From positions 81,181-145,180 of the forward strand of contig PLYC01000007.1 of assembly GCA_003151625.1 (NCBI GenBank): a DNA stretch of 64,000 nt, written 5' to 3'. The translations under genes and the position numbers were made by a program. This document shows positions 56,961 through 64,000 of this stretch, piece after piece; within the stretch, counting starts at the first letter, position 1; each line of letters starts with the position of its first letter. The notes beneath the pieces are model-generated. The model saw nothing but the letters and a program-made list of their open reading frames with translations. It did no database searches and had not been told where the DNA came from. The stretch is from Candidatus Doudnabacteria bacterium. Lineage in GTDB: Bacteria; Patescibacteriota; Doudnabacteria; UBA920.

Positions 56961-57179
56961 TCAGCACCAGACGCGTTGCGGTTTGCGGGTCAGTTCTGGC
57001 GGGGGAGTCGGCAGTGGGAGCCTTTTCCGCAGCCGTGTAAGGCGGGCTGTCAGTACGTTGATTTCCACCTGGAGACCTGGGATTTTTTTCGCGTCCCCTC
57101 CCAGACTTTGCGCCTTGAGACGCTCCTTGTGTAGGTCATCAAGGTTTTGTTGAAGAATCTCTACAACTCTTTTTGTCAT
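56961..57179 (-). CDS. Small hypothetical coiled-coil protein in a REP-flanked GC-rich insert
   Basis: 72 aa, with a strong ribosome-binding site (TAGGAGGGGC 5 nt upstream). Local GC ~55%. Confidence 0.4.
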   Translation of the reverse strand: MTKRVVEILQQNLDDLHKERLKAQSLGGDAKKIPGLQVEINVLTARLTRLRKRLPLPTPPPELTRKPQRVWC

Positions 57180-57233
57180 TGCCCCTCCTATGGGTTATTT
57201 TTGCCGGTGACGCCGGGCAATTATGGTTTATGG

Positions 57234-57419
57234 TTAAACTCCGAAAAAGTTCAGTCCGCCTGAGAAGGCGAAAGAATATTCCGCGAAGTTGTTGGCCGCT
57301 TTTTGGGCGGCGGAAACGTTGACGGACGGCTCAACAGCCGTCACTTGGTCGGAACCCGCAACGGAGTTCTTTTCAAGATTTTGGTCTTGGGCCATAATTG
57401 AATCCTGCCTTGTGGGCAA
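57234..57419 (-). CDS. Small hypothetical protein in a REP-flanked GC-rich insert
   Basis: 61-aa ORF with a weak ribosome-binding site. Confidence 0.25.
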   Translation of the reverse strand: MPTRQDSIMAQDQNLEKNSVAGSDQVTAVEPSVNVSAAQKAANNFAEYSFAFSGGLNFFGV

Positions 57420-57464
57420 GAGACTGGTTTTACCAATCTTTTGCCAGCAAAGCGGTTTGTCCTG

Positions 57465-57505
57465 CAGTTTCCCCTCCCTTGACGGGAGGGGCTAGGGGAG
57501 GGTGA
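57465..57505. repeat. REP family 1 copy (followed by a ccgcc-ttcgctaaagctac-ggcgg hairpin at 57533-57560)
   Basis: cagtttcccctcccttgacgggaggggctaggggagggtga. Confidence 0.8.
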
Positions 57506-57593
57506 TTAAATTTAATTAAGCCTTATTCGTTATCCGCCTTCGCTAAAGCTACGGCGGATTGTTGCACTATTATTTTTTAATTAATGTGCAACA

Positions 57594-57624
57594 AAAAACC
57601 CCGAGCCGCTAGGCTCGGGGTTTA
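57594..57624 (+). terminator. Intrinsic terminator
   Basis: aaaaaacc-ccgagccgctaggctcgg-ggttt. Confidence 0.6.
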
Positions 57625-57929
57625 AAAGTTTTAGATTAAACCAAAACTCTTCCCTTGCCTAGTGGCGACGGAATAATAATGCTAATAATTATGCTGGAAG
57701 AGTAGATTTTTTGCATTTGAGGTATTATAGCAAAGCAAAATTTTTTGTCAAATTTTGTTAAATTAAAAAGAAGCAGCCCACTTGCTTCTATTTTTCACCG
57801 TAGAGGCAAACTTTGTGGGCTGCTGGCGTTTCAAAGGCACCACCTCCTTAATGATGGTTTGGCCGCAAGCTGTTAAGCTATGGCTGTTAAGTTTGCGCGT
57901 TAAGGATCATCTTCTGTTAATTGTGATCC

Positions 57930-58154
57930 TTAGGCATTTATACCGAATTTTGTTGGTTCGGTGTGGTTGCCCGGTAAACACAGGGCAATCCTTCCCCATT
58001 TCCTTGTTAGGCAGATTGTATGTCTGCCGTAAGGTTGGTGTGCAAAGTCGCACCGGATGAGCTCGGTTAGTTCATCCGAGCAGATTACTAACACCACAAC
58101 ACCTTGGGCTTGCAATGCGACAAGAAGTTCATCGCACTCCTTGCTTTGGTTCAT
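57930..58154 (-). pseudogene. Possible remnant of an ABC-transporter ATPase C-terminus (truncated fragment with an intact RBS)
   Basis: GGAGGTGG ribosome-binding site 8 nt upstream. ...ELLVALQAQGVVVLVICSDELTELIRCDF... resembles the conserved C-terminal region of ABC ATPases. No Walker motifs or upstream portion are present. Confidence 0.3.
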
Positions 58155-58445
58155 TATCTGCCACCTCCAAGTAATTTAGAATTCATTCCAAACTACTTGC
58201 AAATAACAAACAAAAAACCTCCCCGGTCGGGAGGCAAGTAAGATTATTTTTGTAAACTTCTATAATCTTATTCTCCTAACCGAAAAGACGGACATCTTAG
58301 TAGTCTTAATCATGCTTGTCTTTACGGTTTTGGAGGAAGAATTGGAATTCATTACAGGAATAGTATACGCTGGCCGGCTTTTTGTCAATCAATAAAAATT
58401 GGTGTAGAATAACTTTACACAATTAAGGTATAGTATACATTATTT

Positions 58446-58982
58446 ATGGCAGAAGAACGCAAGCATTTTAGGCCTTCCTGGGATGATTATTTTATGGCTA
58501 TGGTTAAAATAGTGGCCTCTCGGGGCACTTGCGCCCGCCTTTATGCCGGGTCGGTTTTGGTAAAGGATAACCGAATTATTGCAACGGGTTACAACGGGTC
58601 ACCCCCGGGTTTGCCACATTGTGATGACGTAGGGCATCTGTTAGAAGAAGGTCATTGTGTGCGCACCATTCACGGCGAACATAATTCTCTCCTGCAGGCC
58701 GCCAAGCAGGGAGGTGCCAGTACCGACGGTTCAACCATGTATACAAAATACAGCCCTTGCATTCACTGCGCGAAATATGTTATTGCCGCCGGGGTCAAAA
58801 GGGTTGTGTTGGGAAAAGTTTACCGTAATCCGCAGGCTGTGGATATGCTAAAAGAAGCCGGGGTAAACGTTGAGGTTTATGTGGAGAACTCCAAATGGCA
58901 AAAAGAACTTATGCAAATATTTGCAGAGGAAATTCCGGTTAGGGAAAATGAAGGAGAAGTAAAAATTAAGACAGAAAAATAA
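58446..58982 (+). CDS. dCMP deaminase (ComEB/cytidine-deaminase zinc family)
   Basis: HAEHNSLLQAAKQG (H-A-E) and PCIHCAKYV (PCxxC) zinc ligands. Confidence 0.85.
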   Translation: MAEERKHFRPSWDDYFMAMVKIVASRGTCARLYAGSVLVKDNRIIATGYNGSPPGLPHCDDVGHLLEEGHCVRTIHGEHNSLLQAAKQGGASTDGSTMYTKYSPCIHCAKYVIAAGVKRVVLGKVYRNPQAVDMLKEAGVNVEVYVENSKWQKELMQIFAEEIPVRENEGEVKIKTEK

Positions 58983-58985
58983 AGA

Positions 58986-59537
58986 ATGAATAAATTTGTT
59001 ATTGCGATTGTCGGTCTGGCCGGTGCCGGAAAAACCGAAGCTACTGAGTATATTAAAAAAAAGACATCTCTGCCAAAAATATATTTTGGCCAAGCAATAA
59101 TTGATGAAGTCAAAAGGCGGGGAAAGCCGCTCGGCGAAGCCAACGAAAGAATTGTGCGGGAAGAGTTTAGGGATCGTGATAGTTTGGCCGCAATGGCCAT
59201 TGCCAATTTGCCGGCCATAAAAAAAGCTTTTGAAACTTCATCAGTTATTATAGAAAGCTTGTACAGCTGGGAAGAGTTTTTAAAGGTAAGGGAAGAATTT
59301 GGGGAAAGTTTTAAAGTTTTGGCAGTTTTTAGTTCTTACGAAACCCGGGTAAAGAGAATGGCAAATCGGCCGGTTCGGCCTTTGACCGCCGCGGATTTGG
59401 AATCACGCGACAAATCGCAAATAGAAAACTTGCACCAGGCGGGGCCAATTGCTCGCGCTGATTGGACAATTGTAAATGAGGGGAGCAAGGAAGAGTTATA
59501 TGCGGCTATTGATGTAATTTTGAGCAAGTTGCTTTAA
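58986..59537 (+). CDS. P-loop kinase resembling phage-T4 gp1-type dNMP kinase (paralog 1)
   Basis: Walker A GLAGAGKTEA. The C-terminus (...WTIVNEGSKEELYAAIDVILSKLL) resembles the T4 gp1 C-terminus (...NDGSLEELFSKIKNTLKVL). Embedded in the dNTP cluster. Confidence 0.5.
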   Translation: MNKFVIAIVGLAGAGKTEATEYIKKKTSLPKIYFGQAIIDEVKRRGKPLGEANERIVREEFRDRDSLAAMAIANLPAIKKAFETSSVIIESLYSWEEFLKVREEFGESFKVLAVFSSYETRVKRMANRPVRPLTAADLESRDKSQIENLHQAGPIARADWTIVNEGSKEELYAAIDVILSKLL

Positions 59538-59633
59538 AAGATATTGATAGATATTATTGAAATTAGGATATTATCTGAAATTTCATTAATATCTACCAAT
59601 ATCAATAATATCTATAAATATCCATTTGATTAC

Positions 59634-60092
59634 ATGAAAGCCAGGATTAAAAGATTAACCAAAGACATTGAATTACCCAAATACCATACTTCCGAATCCG
59701 CTGGGTTTGATATTGCCTCATCTGTCGATATTACGGTGGCTCCGGGCGCGGTGGTTAAAATACCCACTGGCCTCGTTATAGCGTCTCCAAAGGGGCATTT
59801 TTTGCTTATAGCCGCCCGTAGCAGCCTGTCTTTTAAAAAGGGTTTGGCAATGGCTAACGGTATTGGTATTGTAGACCCGGACTATGCCGGCCCGAACGAC
59901 GAAATCCATATTATTGTCCACAATTTTACAGACCAGCCGGTAGAAGTTAAAAAAGGCGAACGTCTGGCGCAGGGGCTATTTTTAAAAACTGAACAGGCGC
60001 AGTGGGAAGAGGTTGACCAGCTACACAATGTCGACCGCGGGGGGATAGGGAGCACAGGTGGGTATGCGGTAACTGATAACAATAATAATTAA
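59634..60092 (+). CDS. dut: dUTP pyrophosphatase
   Basis: MKARIKRL...SAGFDI...GIVDPDYAG...RGGFGSTG-like motifs. The start was taken at ATG 59634, not the track's 59544. Confidence 0.9.
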   Translation: MKARIKRLTKDIELPKYHTSESAGFDIASSVDITVAPGAVVKIPTGLVIASPKGHFLLIAARSSLSFKKGLAMANGIGIVDPDYAGPNDEIHIIVHNFTDQPVEVKKGERLAQGLFLKTEQAQWEEVDQLHNVDRGGIGSTGGYAVTDNNNN

Positions 60093-60141
60093 CAACATCA
60101 TCGTATTAAATAAATAATGTGTGGTATAGGAGAACCATTTT

Positions 60142-60681
60142 ATGATTATAGGGCTTGTCGGAGAAAAACTTGCGGGCAAAGATACGGTGGCCAATTATTT
60201 GGTTGACAAACATAATGCCTCGCATTTCAGGTTTGCTCATATTCTGGATGCAATTTTAGAAGAGCTAAATTTGGAAATTTCCAGAAAAAATGAGATAGAT
60301 TTAGGCCTTGGCCTGCGAAAAATTTTTGGCGAACACGTTTTGGTAAACGCGCTGGAGCAAAGAGTTAGGCGGTCTCTGTCCAGTTACCGCGTGGTCAACG
60401 GCATTCGTATGGACGAACTTGATGAAGTAAAATCCTGGGGGGCAAAAATTATTTATATTACGGCTCCATTGGAAATAAGGTTTCCCAGATACCAGCAGCG
60501 GCACGAAAAAATCGATGATGGGGAAATGGATTTGGAACATTTTAAACTCCAGGAGCAGGAAGGTCCGACAGAAATGAAAATTCCGGAATTGGGTCAAACC
60601 GCGGATTTCCGGATAGACAACATTGGAACTATAGAGGAGTTGTATGGGAAAGTGGATGGCATTCTAAAAAAATTAAAATAA
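60142..60681 (+). CDS. P-loop kinase resembling phage-T4 gp1-type dNMP kinase (paralog 2)
   Basis: MIIGLVGEKLAGKDTVANYL (GKDT as in T4 gp1 SGKDT). C-terminus IDNIGTIEELYGKVDGILKKLK. Confidence 0.55.
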   Translation: MIIGLVGEKLAGKDTVANYLVDKHNASHFRFAHILDAILEELNLEISRKNEIDLGLGLRKIFGEHVLVNALEQRVRRSLSSYRVVNGIRMDELDEVKSWGAKIIYITAPLEIRFPRYQQRHEKIDDGEMDLEHFKLQEQEGPTEMKIPELGQTADFRIDNIGTIEELYGKVDGILKKLK

Positions 60682-60718
60682 TTTTGGTATTCTAAAGTGT
60701 GTCCGTCCTCGTGACTTC

Positions 60719-60809
60719 GGCGTCTTTCTGAACCCGAATGCATCTGAGGGTGAAGAATCTCTAAATTTTAATGAGATCCTTCGTCGGCTGCACTCCTCAG
60801 GATGACGCC
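60719..60809. mobile_element. MITE-like element, family 2, second copy, immediately upstream of tmk
   Basis: ggcgtctttctga...gaagaatctctaaattttaatgagatccttc...cggctgcactc...tcaggatgacgcc. Confidence 0.65.
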
Positions 60810-60823
60810 GTAAGTGATTTCTT

Positions 60824-61558
60824 ATGCCATTACTTAAATTCGGAAAATCTAAAAAAAAGGAAAACAAGCGTGGGCGGTTTATTGTTATTGACGGCACCGA
60901 TGGCACCGGCAAGGCAACCCAGACTAATCTTTTAGTAGAAGAATTAAAATTGGGCGGTTACGACGTGGAGATGACAGATTTTCCCCAATATGGGACTAAA
61001 TCTGCTGGCTTGATAGAGGAGTATTTAAACGGCAAGTATGGCCAGGTGGGGCCGGAGGCGGCATCTATTTTTTACGCTATAGACAGGTTTGATGCCAGTT
61101 TTATAATTAAAGGATGGCTGGACGCCGGCAAAATTGTAATTTCAAACCGATACGTTACAGCAAATGCCGGGCATCAGGGCGGGAAAATCGCCGATGATAT
61201 AGACCGATTGAAGTTTTTTAAATGGCTGAATAATCTTGAATACAATATTTTTAACATTCCCAAACCAGACCTAAATATTATTTTACACATTCCCGCGGAA
61301 TTAGCCCAACAGTTGGTGGATAAAAAATCCGCGGCCGAAAGGAAGTACGCCAACGGTAAAAAACGCGATTTGCATGAGGCTGACCTTAAACATTTGCAAG
61401 ACGCGGAAAAGGTATATAAAGAAATTGCCAGGCTTTTCCCCAATACCAAACTGGTGGAGTGCGTTACTGAAAATAAACTCCTGACGCCGCAGGAAGTCCA
61501 TAATAAAGTTTGGGACTTGGTGAGAAGAATTGCTCTTAAAGATATTAAACCGCAATAA
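60824..61558 (+). CDS. tmk: Thymidylate kinase
   Basis: FIVIDGTDGTGKATQ P-loop, DRY-like motif, and LID region. Confidence 0.9.
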   Translation: MPLLKFGKSKKKENKRGRFIVIDGTDGTGKATQTNLLVEELKLGGYDVEMTDFPQYGTKSAGLIEEYLNGKYGQVGPEAASIFYAIDRFDASFIIKGWLDAGKIVISNRYVTANAGHQGGKIADDIDRLKFFKWLNNLEYNIFNIPKPDLNIILHIPAELAQQLVDKKSAAERKYANGKKRDLHEADLKHLQDAEKVYKEIARLFPNTKLVECVTENKLLTPQEVHNKVWDLVRRIALKDIKPQ

Positions 61559-61561
61559 TTT

Positions 61562-62374
61562 ATGAAAGTATACTTGGATCTTTTAGAAAAAATTATGAAA
61601 GACGGTGCGCAGAAGCACGACCGGACGGGGACGGGGACGAAATCGATATTTGGGTATCAGATGCGTTTTAACCTTGTCGAAGGCTTTCCGCTGACGACAA
61701 CCAAGAAGATTCATTTAAAATCAATTATTTACGAATTGCTTTGGTTTTTAAAAGGCGACATCAATGTTAAATGGCTAAACGAGCATGGGGTGACCATTTG
61801 GGACGAATGGGCGGACGCTAATGGGGATTTGGGGCCGGTTTACGGAAAGCAGTGGCGGGCATGGAAAGGATATAATGGCGAAACTTATGACCAAATTTCT
61901 TATGTCGTTGACCAGATAAAAAATAATCCCGATAACCGCAGGATGATAGTTAGCGGCTGGAACGTCGCGGATTTACAATCGCTAATTGCCGGTAAAAAAA
62001 CCGCGCCGCCTCCGTGCCACACAATGTTCCAGTTTTATGTGGCCAACAATAAATTATCATGCCAGCTTTATCAGAGATCGGCCGACACTTTTTTGGGTGT
62101 GCCCTTTAATATTGCCTCTTACGCTTTGCTGACAATGATGATGGCGCAGGTTACCGGCAGGGAACTAGGGGATTTTGTGCACACTTTTGGCGACGTGCAT
62201 ATTTATAACAACCATTTTGATCAGGTTAAACTTCAATTATCGCGAACTCCCAAACCGCTGTCCAAAATGAAAATTAATCCGGAAGTAAAAAATATTTTTG
62301 ATTTTAAATACGAAGATTTTACTTTGGAAGGCTATAATCCGGATCCGGGGATTAAAGCCCCGATAGCAGTGTGA
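61562..62374 (+). CDS. thyA: Thymidylate synthase (ThyA, folate-dependent)
   Basis: [17 protein letters not shown] (catalytic Cys), [20 protein letters not shown] (Asn, giving dUMP specificity), ends IKAPIAV. Confidence 0.95.
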
Positions 62375-62466
62375 TACAAATATACTGATGCATGCGGATA
62401 CCTCTGCCCCAATCTGTATTATCAGTATCATCCGTATTTTAATTCGTATATCAGTATCTTATAACC

Positions 62467-62937
62467 ATGATTGCACTTATTGCCGCGGTGGCCAAAAATA
62501 ATGTAATTGGGAGCAAGAACGATTTGCCCTGGTATTTGCCCGAGGACTTAAAACGTTTTAAACAGCTGACTTTGGGTAAAGTGGTGGTTATGGGCAGAAA
62601 AACTTACGACTCGATCATCAGTCGTTTAAAAAAGCCTTTGCGTGGCCGCACTAACATTGTCATCAGCACCCAAAATTTACAATTGCCGGAAGGAGTGGAA
62701 CTTTATCATAGCGTGGATGACGCACTTGCCGCTCATCAGAACCAGGAAATTTACATAATCGGCGGCGAACAAATTTTTAAGCAAAGCCTGAATGTGGCCG
62801 ACACGTTATATATTACCCACTTAAATAAAGACTATGAAGGCGACGCTTTTTTTCCGAAGATAGATGAAAGTTATTGGCAAATGACAGAAGACGAAAAACA
62901 CGAGGGTTATAGCTTTTTAATTTATAAGAAAAAATAG
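62467..62937 (+). CDS. folA: Dihydrofolate reductase
   Basis: MIALIAAVAKNNVIG...LPW...DLKRFKQLT...VVMGRKTYDSI. Confidence 0.9.
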   Translation: MIALIAAVAKNNVIGSKNDLPWYLPEDLKRFKQLTLGKVVVMGRKTYDSIISRLKKPLRGRTNIVISTQNLQLPEGVELYHSVDDALAAHQNQEIYIIGGEQIFKQSLNVADTLYITHLNKDYEGDAFFPKIDESYWQMTEDEKHEGYSFLIYKKK

Positions 62938-63014: not shown

Positions 63015-63419
63015 ATGGCTAAAAGCGCGAAGAAGCTTATTTTGTTTGAAGTCAGCCACAGTATTGACGAATCTCTTAAGAGTATTGCAATTATTCAGGG
63101 GCGGTCTGTCTCGGTAGTTATTGCGATCTTGGCAGAGTACGTACTTGATGCTGTGGCAAAAGAGCCGCGCGTGCTAATTCGCTTCCGGGAGTATCGAGGC
63201 GAAAAACCGACATGCTTTGAGGACGTCGGGCTCACAGGAAAGCATTTTAGGCTTTCCATGCAATTAGCTAGCGCCTGCGGATTAACCGTTTCAGAGTTTT
63301 TTTGCCGCCTGTTGGCGGTTGGGATAGAGTTTTGTCCCAAGAGTGGGTCGTGGAATAAGGAGGAAATAATCAGCGCCATTCGCGCTGATTGTGTAATTCG
63401 CTTTTCGCGTCTTGCTTAA
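63015..63419 (+). CDS. Hypothetical protein flanked by short direct repeats (ggggctttttt; gtgttatgg)
   Basis: 134-aa ORF. A TGGTATAAT box lies at 62976-62984. Confidence 0.35.
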   Translation: MAKSAKKLILFEVSHSIDESLKSIAIIQGRSVSVVIAILAEYVLDAVAKEPRVLIRFREYRGEKPTCFEDVGLTGKHFRLSMQLASACGLTVSEFFCRLLAVGIEFCPKSGSWNKEEIISAIRADCVIRFSRLA

Positions 63420-63489: not shown

Positions 63490-64000
63490 ATGAATGATCT
63501 TATTAAGCGTCTCGAAAATCTTAAATCCGAAATCTTAAATCTTAAATCTCATTTAAATCTGCCGCAGAAGGAGCAGAAGATTTTGGAATTGGAGGAGCAG
63601 ATGCAGGGGAAGGATTTTTGGGCGGATAATGAGAATGCGCAAAGGGTTAGCCGGGATTATAATCAGCTTAAGAAGTTTTACGATTTTTGGTTGAAACTAG
63701 AAGTGAATATAAGCGAAACTTTGGATTTGGCGAAGGAGAGTGACGCGAAAAAAAACGCTGACGTAGATTATCTTAAGGTTCAAATTGAAAGCTTGGAATT
63801 AGAATATAAGAAAAACCGTTTTGTGGCCTTACTCTCCAAAAAGTACGATGACCATAGTGCGATCTTTTCCATTCACAGCGGTGCCGGGGGAGTGGACGCG
63901 CAGGATTGGGCAAGTATGATATTAAGAATGATATTAAGATATTGTGATATTAAAGGATTTGTTACGGAAGTTTTAGAAATGTCTAAAGGCGAACAGGGCG
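63490..64000 (+). CDS. prfB: Peptide chain release factor 2 (3' end outside the window), no programmed frameshift
   Basis: ...DFWADNENAQRV...HSGAGGVDAQDWASMILRM... matches RF2 (PDFWND...AGSGGTEAQDWASMLLRMY). The frame is continuous from the ATG. Confidence 0.8.
   Translation, partial: MNDLIKRLENLKSEILNLKSHLNLPQKEQKILELEEQMQGKDFWADNENAQRVSRDYNQLKKFYDFWLKLEVNISETLDLAKESDAKKNADVDYLKVQIESLELEYKKNRFVALLSKKYDDHSAIFSIHSGAGGVDAQDWASMILRMILRYCDIKGFVTEVLEMSKGEQG

Follow-up and report, generated by a model that had tools for sequence, protein, structure and literature searches.

Bacteriophage T4 encodes a deoxynucleoside monophosphate (dNMP) kinase, gp1 (241 aa; PDB 1DEK), whose substrates are given as dGMP, dTMP and hydroxymethyl-dCMP in the annotation of the T4 record. 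It is a two-domain protein in which a helical second domain, approximately equal in size to the P-loop kinase core, builds the dNMP pocket (PMC10653934). Shorter phage proteins of approximately 200 aa, also named 'dNMP kinases', are found in Herelleviridae of Bacillus (e.g., BCP8-2 gp047) and are biochemically uncharacterised, as far as found. In DcdV/AvcD, a P-loop kinase is fused to a dCMP deaminase, and deamination of dCMP/dCTP requires both domains (bioRxiv 10.1101/2021.03.31.437871). Additionally, the archaeal UPF0200 family includes SSO1041 of Sulfolobus (PDB 3LW7/3H0K, AMP-bound) and PF1294 of Pyrococcus. This study examined a stretch of 64,000 nucleotides (the window) on the 424,907-bp contig PLYC01000007.1 of a Candidatus Doudnabacteria bacterium, in which seven genes at 58446-62937 encode the enzymes of deoxythymidine triphosphate (dTTP) synthesis together with two small P-loop kinases, here called K1 and K2.

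The analysis favours, with a probability of roughly 0.55, one ancestral dTTP operon carrying two extra small P-loop phosphotransferases that act on deoxynucleotides. K1 and K2 belong to a known superfamily and are themselves uncharacterised, but their conserved context is unusually clear, and from that context they are most likely deoxynucleotide kinases. As with gp1, they are found alongside a dCMP deaminase, thymidylate synthase (ThyA) and dihydrofolate reductase (DHFR).

Organization of the operon

The genes and the flanking signals are as follows.

58382..58410, + strand: promoter-like site TTGTCA-17-TAGAAT, a consensus match only, 36 nt 5' of the Dcd start codon
58446..58982, + strand: dCMP deaminase (Dcd), ComEB/DCTD type, 178 aa; PF00383 at 83.8 bits, phrog_174, zinc motifs
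58986..59537, + strand: K1, 183-aa P-loop kinase; SSO1041/UPF0200 fold, homologue of the DcdV/AvcD P-loop kinase (PLK) domain
59634..60092, + strand: dUTPase (Dut), 152 aa from the ATG; PF00692 at 89.6 bits
60142..60681, + strand: K2, P-loop kinase of 179 aa whose P-loop reads GKDT; single-domain and distantly related to phage dNMP kinases; member of a large Patescibacteria family encoded directly upstream of tmk
60824..61558, + strand: thymidylate kinase (Tmk), 244 aa; PF02223 at 77 bits
61562..62374, + strand: ThyA, 270 aa; PF00303 at 402.9 bits, catalytic Cys and dUMP-specifying Asn
62467..62937, + strand: dihydrofolate reductase (FolA), 156 aa; PF00186 at 181.2 bits
62953..62976, + strand: intrinsic-terminator-like hairpin, 10-bp stem and T run, 16 nt 3' of the folA stop codon

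Because the genes are co-oriented, lie 3 to 142 nt apart (dcd-K1 3, K1-dut 96, dut-K2 49, K2-tmk 142, tmk-thyA 3, thyA-folA 92) and are bracketed by a promoter-like site and a terminator, the region 58446-62937 is most simply one chromosomal operon of a Doudnabacteria-like Patescibacterium. The original prediction had described seven co-oriented genes forming a dTTP-synthesis cluster; all seven open reading frames (ORFs) were found on the plus strand as listed, and their family assignments bear out the cluster and the calls for the five pathway genes. For dut, the longest ORF opens with a TTG at 59544, and the ATG at 59634 is favoured by family alignments and orthologues: the PRK00601 alignment begins at residue 31 of the long ORF, and the orthologue in a related locus (L005) starts at the equivalent Met.

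The canonical pathway enzymes (Dcd, Dut, Tmk, ThyA and FolA) match their family models and retain their catalytic motifs; these five enzymes are themselves ordinary. Dcd matches TIGR02571 (ComEB-like) over its full length at 149.6 bits, below the cutoff of that model, and carries zinc motifs of the HxE and PCxxC form (HGE at residue 76, PCIHC at residue 104). Tmk scores 117.6 bits against PRK07933, also below the cutoff, and ThyA scores 464 bits against NF002497, above the cutoff of 327. The catalytic 'PPCH' motif of ThyA at residue 150 and the Asn within 'PFN' at 181-183, combined with the PF00186 match of the adjoining gene, agree with the earlier view of ThyA as a canonical dUMP methylase with a neighbouring DHFR.

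Conservation and origin of the locus

A scan of species-representative genomes with K2 yielded 35 Patescibacteria genomes, whose flanking regions were typed by tblastn. Homologues at 55-86% identity all came from Patescibacteria metagenome-assembled genomes, the named ones being mostly Candidatus Doudnabacteria. In Type A, seen in 17 loci besides the window, rplA and a response regulator gene are followed by dcd-K1-dut-K2-tmk-thyA-folA and then prfB; L005, with a divergent deaminase and a ThyA-like gene, belongs to this type. Type B (14 loci) begins with a dCTP deaminase gene, continues with folA, thyA, CYTH and usually HD/YfbR genes on the opposite strand, and ends with K2 and tmk; it has no K1, dcd or dut, and the same rplA/prfB frame is seen wherever the flanks reach. 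Type C (2 loci) has a dCTP-deaminase-like gene ahead of dut-K2-tmk-thyA-folA.

Wherever a locus of these 35 species genomes is fully informative, the cluster sits between rplA and prfB. The G+C content of the cluster is 0.41-0.47 against 0.442 +/- 0.045 for the window, and its tetranucleotide distance is 0.159 against 0.155 +/- 0.013. Additionally, no close relative of K1 or K2 was found in IMG/VR by pattern-based scans, which distant relatives would escape. The operon is therefore ancestral to the lineage and vertically inherited, and not a recent phage import: composition and synteny speak against recent horizontal transfer, and a recent phage origin is unsupported given the native composition, the conserved synteny and the lack of close IMG/VR relatives. 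These same findings contradict the earlier suggestion that the module is unusual for a cellular genome and may have been acquired from a phage, insofar as a recent event was meant. An ancient exchange between phage and cell, in either direction, is possible.

The Type B loci (L016, L018, L021, L022 and others; e.g., L016:52-5097) represent a second conserved layout of this slot in Patescibacteria. They additionally carry a NUDIX gene on the opposite strand; their thyA encodes a long ThyA (329-348 aa), and the HD-domain gene encodes a YfbR-like 5'-deoxynucleotidase. The slot forms a larger deoxynucleotide-metabolism neighbourhood.

Genomic context of K2

In each of the 33 informative genome loci tmk comes after K2, with one ORF inserted between them in L005, and Type B loci retain the K2-tmk pair despite having neither K1 nor dcd nor dut. 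A profile search of 1.84 billion representatives recovered 154 K2 clusters (50% identity) at E<=1e-30 and 1649 at E<=1e-10; each of the 152 K2-family proteins checked (152/152) scored far higher against the K2 model than against that of K1. The distant K2-type clusters include the arrangements dcd-thyX-K2-[tmk/dut fusion], rplA-[X+K2]-dcd-K2-thyX-tmk-mazG and nusG-rplK-rplA-dcd-K2-(M23)-tmk-dut, from which it follows that K2 stays with thymidylate genes even where ThyX displaces ThyA. Two proteins of 376-378 aa from Logan assemblies (P0282 and P0391) are fusions of a K2-type kinase with a dUTPase. Combined, these contexts strongly associate K2 with a role in the metabolism of deoxynucleotides, in particular the part linked to thymidylate. 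A Tmk-dUTPase fusion adjoining a K2-type kinase and ThyX was also seen at L041:8557-9759.

Genomic context of K1 and its relationship to DcdV/AvcD

Among the K2-anchored genome loci, K1 was present in 18, with a ComEB-type dCMP deaminase upstream in 16 of them; in the other two, a divergent deaminase precedes K1 (L005) or a 4-kb contig leaves no deaminase in view (L015). K1 was absent from all 16 K2-anchored loci that have a dCTP deaminase instead. Since this first locus set had been chosen through K2, metagenomes were resampled with K1 as the anchor, giving 80 loci at 36-71% identity, of which 67 were informative and 13 too short. A dCMP deaminase lay immediately upstream of K1 in 32 and immediately downstream in 19 of the 67 informative loci, i.e. 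adjacent in 51. In one locus, dcd-K1 sits beside folA and thyA (by tblastn), and the downstream ORF reads like glyA (by ORF reading). The kinase-deaminase pair appears to be widespread as a two-gene module, and the K1-anchored counts identify K1 as a stand-alone partner of dCMP deaminase in diverse bacteria.

The two genes also correspond to the two parts of DcdV/AvcD, whose kinase domain is homologous to K1 and whose deaminase domain is homologous to Dcd. Residues 3-162 of K1 match positions 154-316 of the PADLOC dCTPase model (39.5 bits, E=8e-11) and K1 matches NF041025 at 31.3 bits, whereas K2 matches neither; the neighbouring Dcd matches the C-terminal region of the same two models, and phrog_9198 matches both K1 and Dcd. 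DcdV/AvcD is a fusion, whereas dcd and K1 are adjacent genes (3-nt gap in the window) that are co-inherited in either order across many bacteria. The window pair differs further in being two proteins, deaminase then kinase, within a housekeeping operon, in having a deaminase of the ordinary ComEB/DCTD type, and in showing no evident toxin-antitoxin arrangement.

In the 19 loci where K1 precedes dcd (among L087-L104, L113 and L118), the two are separate ORFs in the domain order of DcdV. The K1 stop and dcd start codons overlap at L092:4992-6013; the other pair examined was L090:5001-6137. The surroundings of L090 and L092 do not resemble those of Patescibacteria; nearby genes may encode a TonB-type receptor and a corrinoid adenosyltransferase, as judged by reading the sequence and not by family search.

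Fold and motifs of the two kinases

K1 and K2 share 27% identity (BLASTP E=1e-5), and hhalign aligns the two profiles along their whole length (E=7e-14). The AlphaFold (AF2) models of both are confident, with predicted local distance difference test (pLDDT) values of 92.4 and 90.5. The best PDB sequence match of both is SSO1041, labelled "AdkA-like" (E=2e-5 for K1, 5e-3 for K2), and by hhalign SSO1041 aligns to K1 over 158 columns (E=7e-13) and to K2 over 159 columns (E=4e-10), so that both kinases combine a UPF0200/SSO1041-like fold with significant sequence and profile similarity over their full length. Both also agree with UPF0200 proteins in size and single-domain architecture, at 21-27% identity. 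K2 matches NCBIfam PRK08356 ("hypothetical protein") over its full length, below the cutoff; K1 otherwise matches the generic AAA_17/AAA_18 models and phrog_10255.

Both families retain the Lys of the P-loop along with several arginines of the lid and NMP site (K13, R48, R59, R89, R113, R116 and R120 invariant in the K2 family; K16, R58, R62, R121, R124, R128 and R131 in the K1 family), which is why both kinases look catalytically competent at the level of sequence. A GKDT-type P-loop had been proposed as common to the two; it is present in K2 (GEKLAGKDT), and K1 has a standard P-loop instead (GLAGAGKTE). The C-terminal motif, also proposed as shared, was found in both (K1 NEGSKEELYAAIDVILSKLL, K2 NIGTIEELYGKVDGILKKLK) as in gp1 (NDGSLEELFSKIKNTLKVL). 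In gp1, the adenine of ATP is bound by N223, G225, S226, L227 and L230 of this region (PMC10653934), so that the motif is the mark of a kinase clade and is silent on dNMP specificity. The statement that the kinases do not resemble cellular Cmk, Gmk or Adk also held, as nothing exceeded threshold against the Adk, Cmk, Gmk or CoaE models; trace matches were seen for K1 (Adk 16.3 bits, archaeal Cmk 16.2 bits) and none for K2.

Proposed function

By family assignment, Dcd converts dCMP to dUMP and Dut converts dUTP to dUMP; ThyA then methylates dUMP to dTMP, with FolA regenerating tetrahydrofolate, and Tmk phosphorylates dTMP to dTDP. The operon in this way turns deoxycytidine and deoxyuridine nucleotides into dTDP/dTTP. 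K2 would phosphorylate a dNMP other than, or besides, dTMP, with dGMP or dCMP the likeliest by analogy with the phage kinases; a role in the dTDP to dTTP step is a less likely alternative. K1 would work with the dCMP deaminase on deoxycytidine nucleotides, either as a reversible dCMP/dCDP kinase at the branch point, partitioning deoxycytidine between dCTP and dTTP, or as a partner of the DcdV kind, through which the deaminase could use phosphorylated deoxycytidine. The latter model would explain why dcd-K1(-dut) and dCTP deaminase replace one another between Type A and Types B and C.

Several observations weigh against this assignment of K1 and K2 to deoxynucleotides. The substrates of both are deduced from context alone, and there is no pointer to one particular alternative substrate for K2, for which a dTMP-kinase role would be redundant because a canonical Tmk adjoins it. 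The dNMP-pocket domain of gp1 is wholly absent from K2; gp1 K37 and D175 are replaced by L35 and G87, R197 is not kept, and K2 carries an Asn (N86) at the Walker-B-like acid position of its relatives. Sixteen of the 67 informative K1 loci have no adjacent deaminase, although five of these have one a gene away. In deeper Patescibacteria it is a K2-type kinase, and not K1, that follows dcd, which means that the roles are not divided between K1 and K2 in this way everywhere. The closest solved structure, SSO1041, is functionless so far and its archaeal relatives lie among RNA-processing genes. Finally, the JGI label for both kinases is dephospho-CoA kinase, and CoaE structures ranked second for K2 in the structure comparison.

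A sharper version of the deoxynucleotide-kinase explanation is that of non-orthologous replacement, in which K2, K1 or both supply an essential gmk, cmk or ndk step missing from these reduced genomes; we regard this as tentative and on balance unlikely. It would be in keeping with the strong conservation of K2 across the lineage, at 55-85% identity, and the phosphorylation of dGMP by gp1, as well as with reports that gmk is missing in Microgenomatia (PMC9166423) and in the cultivated strain OT8 (bioRxiv 10.64898/2026.06.21.733656). However, Adk and Cmk are both present in OT8, and gmk has been reported missing in classes other than this one. Neither the 64-kb window nor approximately 500 kb of related flanks yielded a gmk, cmk or adk gene, a result that is uninformative at that scale; the only P-loop ORFs of the window and the 35 related loci besides K1, K2 and Tmk were MiaA and FtsE. 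A literature search returned no paper tying dNMP kinases to Patescibacteria, and none on UPF0200, SSO1041 or PRK08356.

A joint proposal, which we put forward as speculative, is that dcd and K1 are the free-standing housekeeping form of DcdV/AvcD and that K2 is a Patescibacteria-wide substitute for a missing kinase step. If this were true, the dcd-K1 pair would be widespread in both gene orders with K1 controlling or feeding the deaminase at the branch between deoxycytidine and thymidine nucleotides, and K2 would fill the reported guanylate/dGMP kinase or dNDP kinase gap of these reduced genomes. Patescibacteria are thought to feed on the nucleic acids of other cells, and their nucleotide salvage has reported gaps; K1 and K2 are concrete, clonable candidates for the missing salvage steps. 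Additionally, the pairing of K1 with a deaminase suggests a source for the kinase-deaminase architecture of DcdV/AvcD and for the first time places relatives of the UPF0200 family, which has solved structures and no assigned function, in a pathway.

Comparison with T4 gp1 and phage kinases

The original prediction had named both proteins T4-gp1-type dNMP kinases and had raised the possibility of a phage-captured module. On such a view, the two duplicated kinases would have gp1-like specificity (dGMP, dTMP and modified dCMP). For K2 the resemblance stands at the family level and fails in architecture. K2 exceeds the gathering cutoff of the PF21448 DNMK model (32.9 bits against 27.1) over residues 2-47 only, and it matches phrog_139 over residues 1-178 at 69.8 bits, a family whose members include gp1 (222.6 bits) as well as the kinase of BCP8-2 (180.9 bits). 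Against the BCP8-2 kinase, K2 aligns over its full length by hhalign (E=1e-11, 30% identity). The GKDT P-loop and the N-x-G-[ST]-x-E-E-L ATP-adenine motif of gp1 are both in K2, the invariant R89 and E92 of K2 correspond to gp1 R177 and E181, and F31, A32 and I34 correspond to the hydrophobic pocket residues L32, A33 and I36. The designation does not extend to K1, which has no DNMK match, a GKTE P-loop and a phrog_139 score of 31.3 bits confined to its N-terminus; of the two gp1 motifs K1 has only the ATP-adenine one, and Tyr93 takes the position of gp1 R177. The precomputed PF21448 match likewise occurs on most K2 homologues and on no K1 homologue.

What gp1, K1 and K2 have in common is the P-loop kinase core. 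At 179-183 aa, K1 and K2 are single-domain proteins too short for the helical domain of the 241-aa gp1, and the two-domain architecture is absent from both. The profile comparison with gp1 that had been proposed as a check aligned 59 C-terminal columns for K2 and 33 C-terminal columns for K1, and the CoaE scores that might have assigned them elsewhere stayed below curated cutoffs. In a PDB sequence search, gp1 was retrieved by K2 only, at E=0.013 and in three short pieces. On this evidence K2 is, by sequence, a distant single-domain relative of phage dNMP kinases, and K1 a UPF0200-type kinase.

Phage capture is accordingly an improbable account of the locus. In its favour are the DNMK score of K2 with gp1's P-loop and C-terminal motif, the shared phrog_139 membership, and the thyA-kinase-folA order in Bacillus phages: the K2-like kinase gene of Herelleviridae sits between thyA and folA, and its product is near K2 in size and 27-28% identical to it by tblastn, with K1 aligning over the P-loop region only. 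There is also the precedent of Pseudomonas putida, in which Tmk is replaced by a gp1-like kinase of a genomic island (PMC10653934). These points are outweighed by the dissimilarity of K1, the absence of helical domain 2 from both proteins, the identity of just 22-29% to phage homologues in GenBank, the lack of close IMG/VR relatives in the pattern-limited scans, and a native composition and chromosomal position that is fixed in the fully informative loci of 35 genomes.

Comparison with UPF0200 and CoaE

It is very improbable that K1 and K2 are dephospho-CoA kinases, or other non-nucleotide small-molecule or RNA kinases, that lie in the operon by chance. This alternative draws on the JGI names, on weak CoaE matches and on the archaeal UPF0200 genes that lie near RNA-repair genes. 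Every CoaE score, however, is under its curated cutoff with partial coverage (K1 against PF01121, 22.5 bits, cutoff 27; K2 against TIGR00152, 18.7 bits, cutoff 65.55), and, in contrast to bacterial CoaE, the genomic context is one of deoxynucleotide and not CoA genes. The dephospho-CoA kinase annotation is rejected on these scores and this context. Linkage with tmk, dcd, dut and thyA/thyX moreover persists over deep divergence, ThyX replacement and gene fusions. A common genomic context with UPF0200 was not observed, as SSO1041 and PF1294 do not lie beside dTTP genes; because the archaeal genes adjoin RNA-processing genes, the structural match transfers no function to K1 or K2.

In Sulfolobus (L044), the SSO1041 orthologue is near genes for a 2'-5' RNA ligase (LigT), a CCA-adding enzyme and a PF01877 RNA-binding protein. 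Of these neighbours, the PF01877 protein alone is seen again around Pyrococcus PF1294 (L045), where ProRS is also present. These neighbours hint at an RNA-related role for the archaeal UPF0200 family.

The least credible alternative, that dcd and K1 form a split DcdV/AvcD-type anti-phage dCTP deaminase acting as a defence toxin and not in housekeeping, could appeal to the matches of both proteins to PADLOC dCTPase and NF041025 and to the DcdV-like order of K1 then dcd in 19 metagenome loci, but it is rejected because the pair is part of a core housekeeping operon that also holds dut, tmk, thyA and folA and keeps a fixed chromosomal position, with separate ORFs reaching 67 and 31 bits against a whole-protein cutoff of 400, a Dcd that matches housekeeping ComEB over its full length, a pair that elsewhere adjoins folA, thyA and a glyA-like ORF, and no antitoxin RNA evident.

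Variant thymidylate locus and flanking features

The L005 locus (L005:6238-8262, contig CAZQFQ010000003.1) has the same rplA...prfB synteny as the window, and its thyA slot holds a divergent ThyA-family protein of 280 aa with 31% identity to the window ThyA. This protein keeps the catalytic Cys and has an Asp ('LGCPHDVAGF') in place of the dUMP-specifying Asn; Asp here is the state specific for dCMP, as in T4 dCMP hydroxymethylase. Its gene is followed by those for a dCTP-deaminase-fold protein and a divergent zinc deaminase; folA is retained, and no canonical thyA was found within 10 kb. The L005 protein may be an enzyme, encoded in a candidate phyla radiation (CPR) chromosome, that methylates or hydroxymethylates dCMP, or may belong to a dCMP to 5-methyl-dCMP to dTMP route, and this Asp variant may be more unusual than the two-kinase operon itself.

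Upstream of the operon, a 1.2-kb stretch is without a long ORF. Two promoter-terminator pairs on the minus strand, at 57590-57751 and 58217-58388 of the window, are candidate small RNAs. In the former, the promoter is a perfect TTGACA-16-TATAAT whose -10 element is extended by TG (57751-57724) and the terminator has a 12-bp stem (57623-57596), for a predicted transcript of approximately 120 nt. An Rfam search of 57100-58500 gave sub-threshold matches only, mostly from a terminator. On the 3' side of the operon terminator, a 134-aa ORF at 63015-63419 has no family match, and unrelated small ORFs occupy its slot in the orthologous loci. The last part of the window (63490-64000) holds the beginning of prfB, coding for the N-terminus of release factor 2; the gene is cut off by the end of the window.

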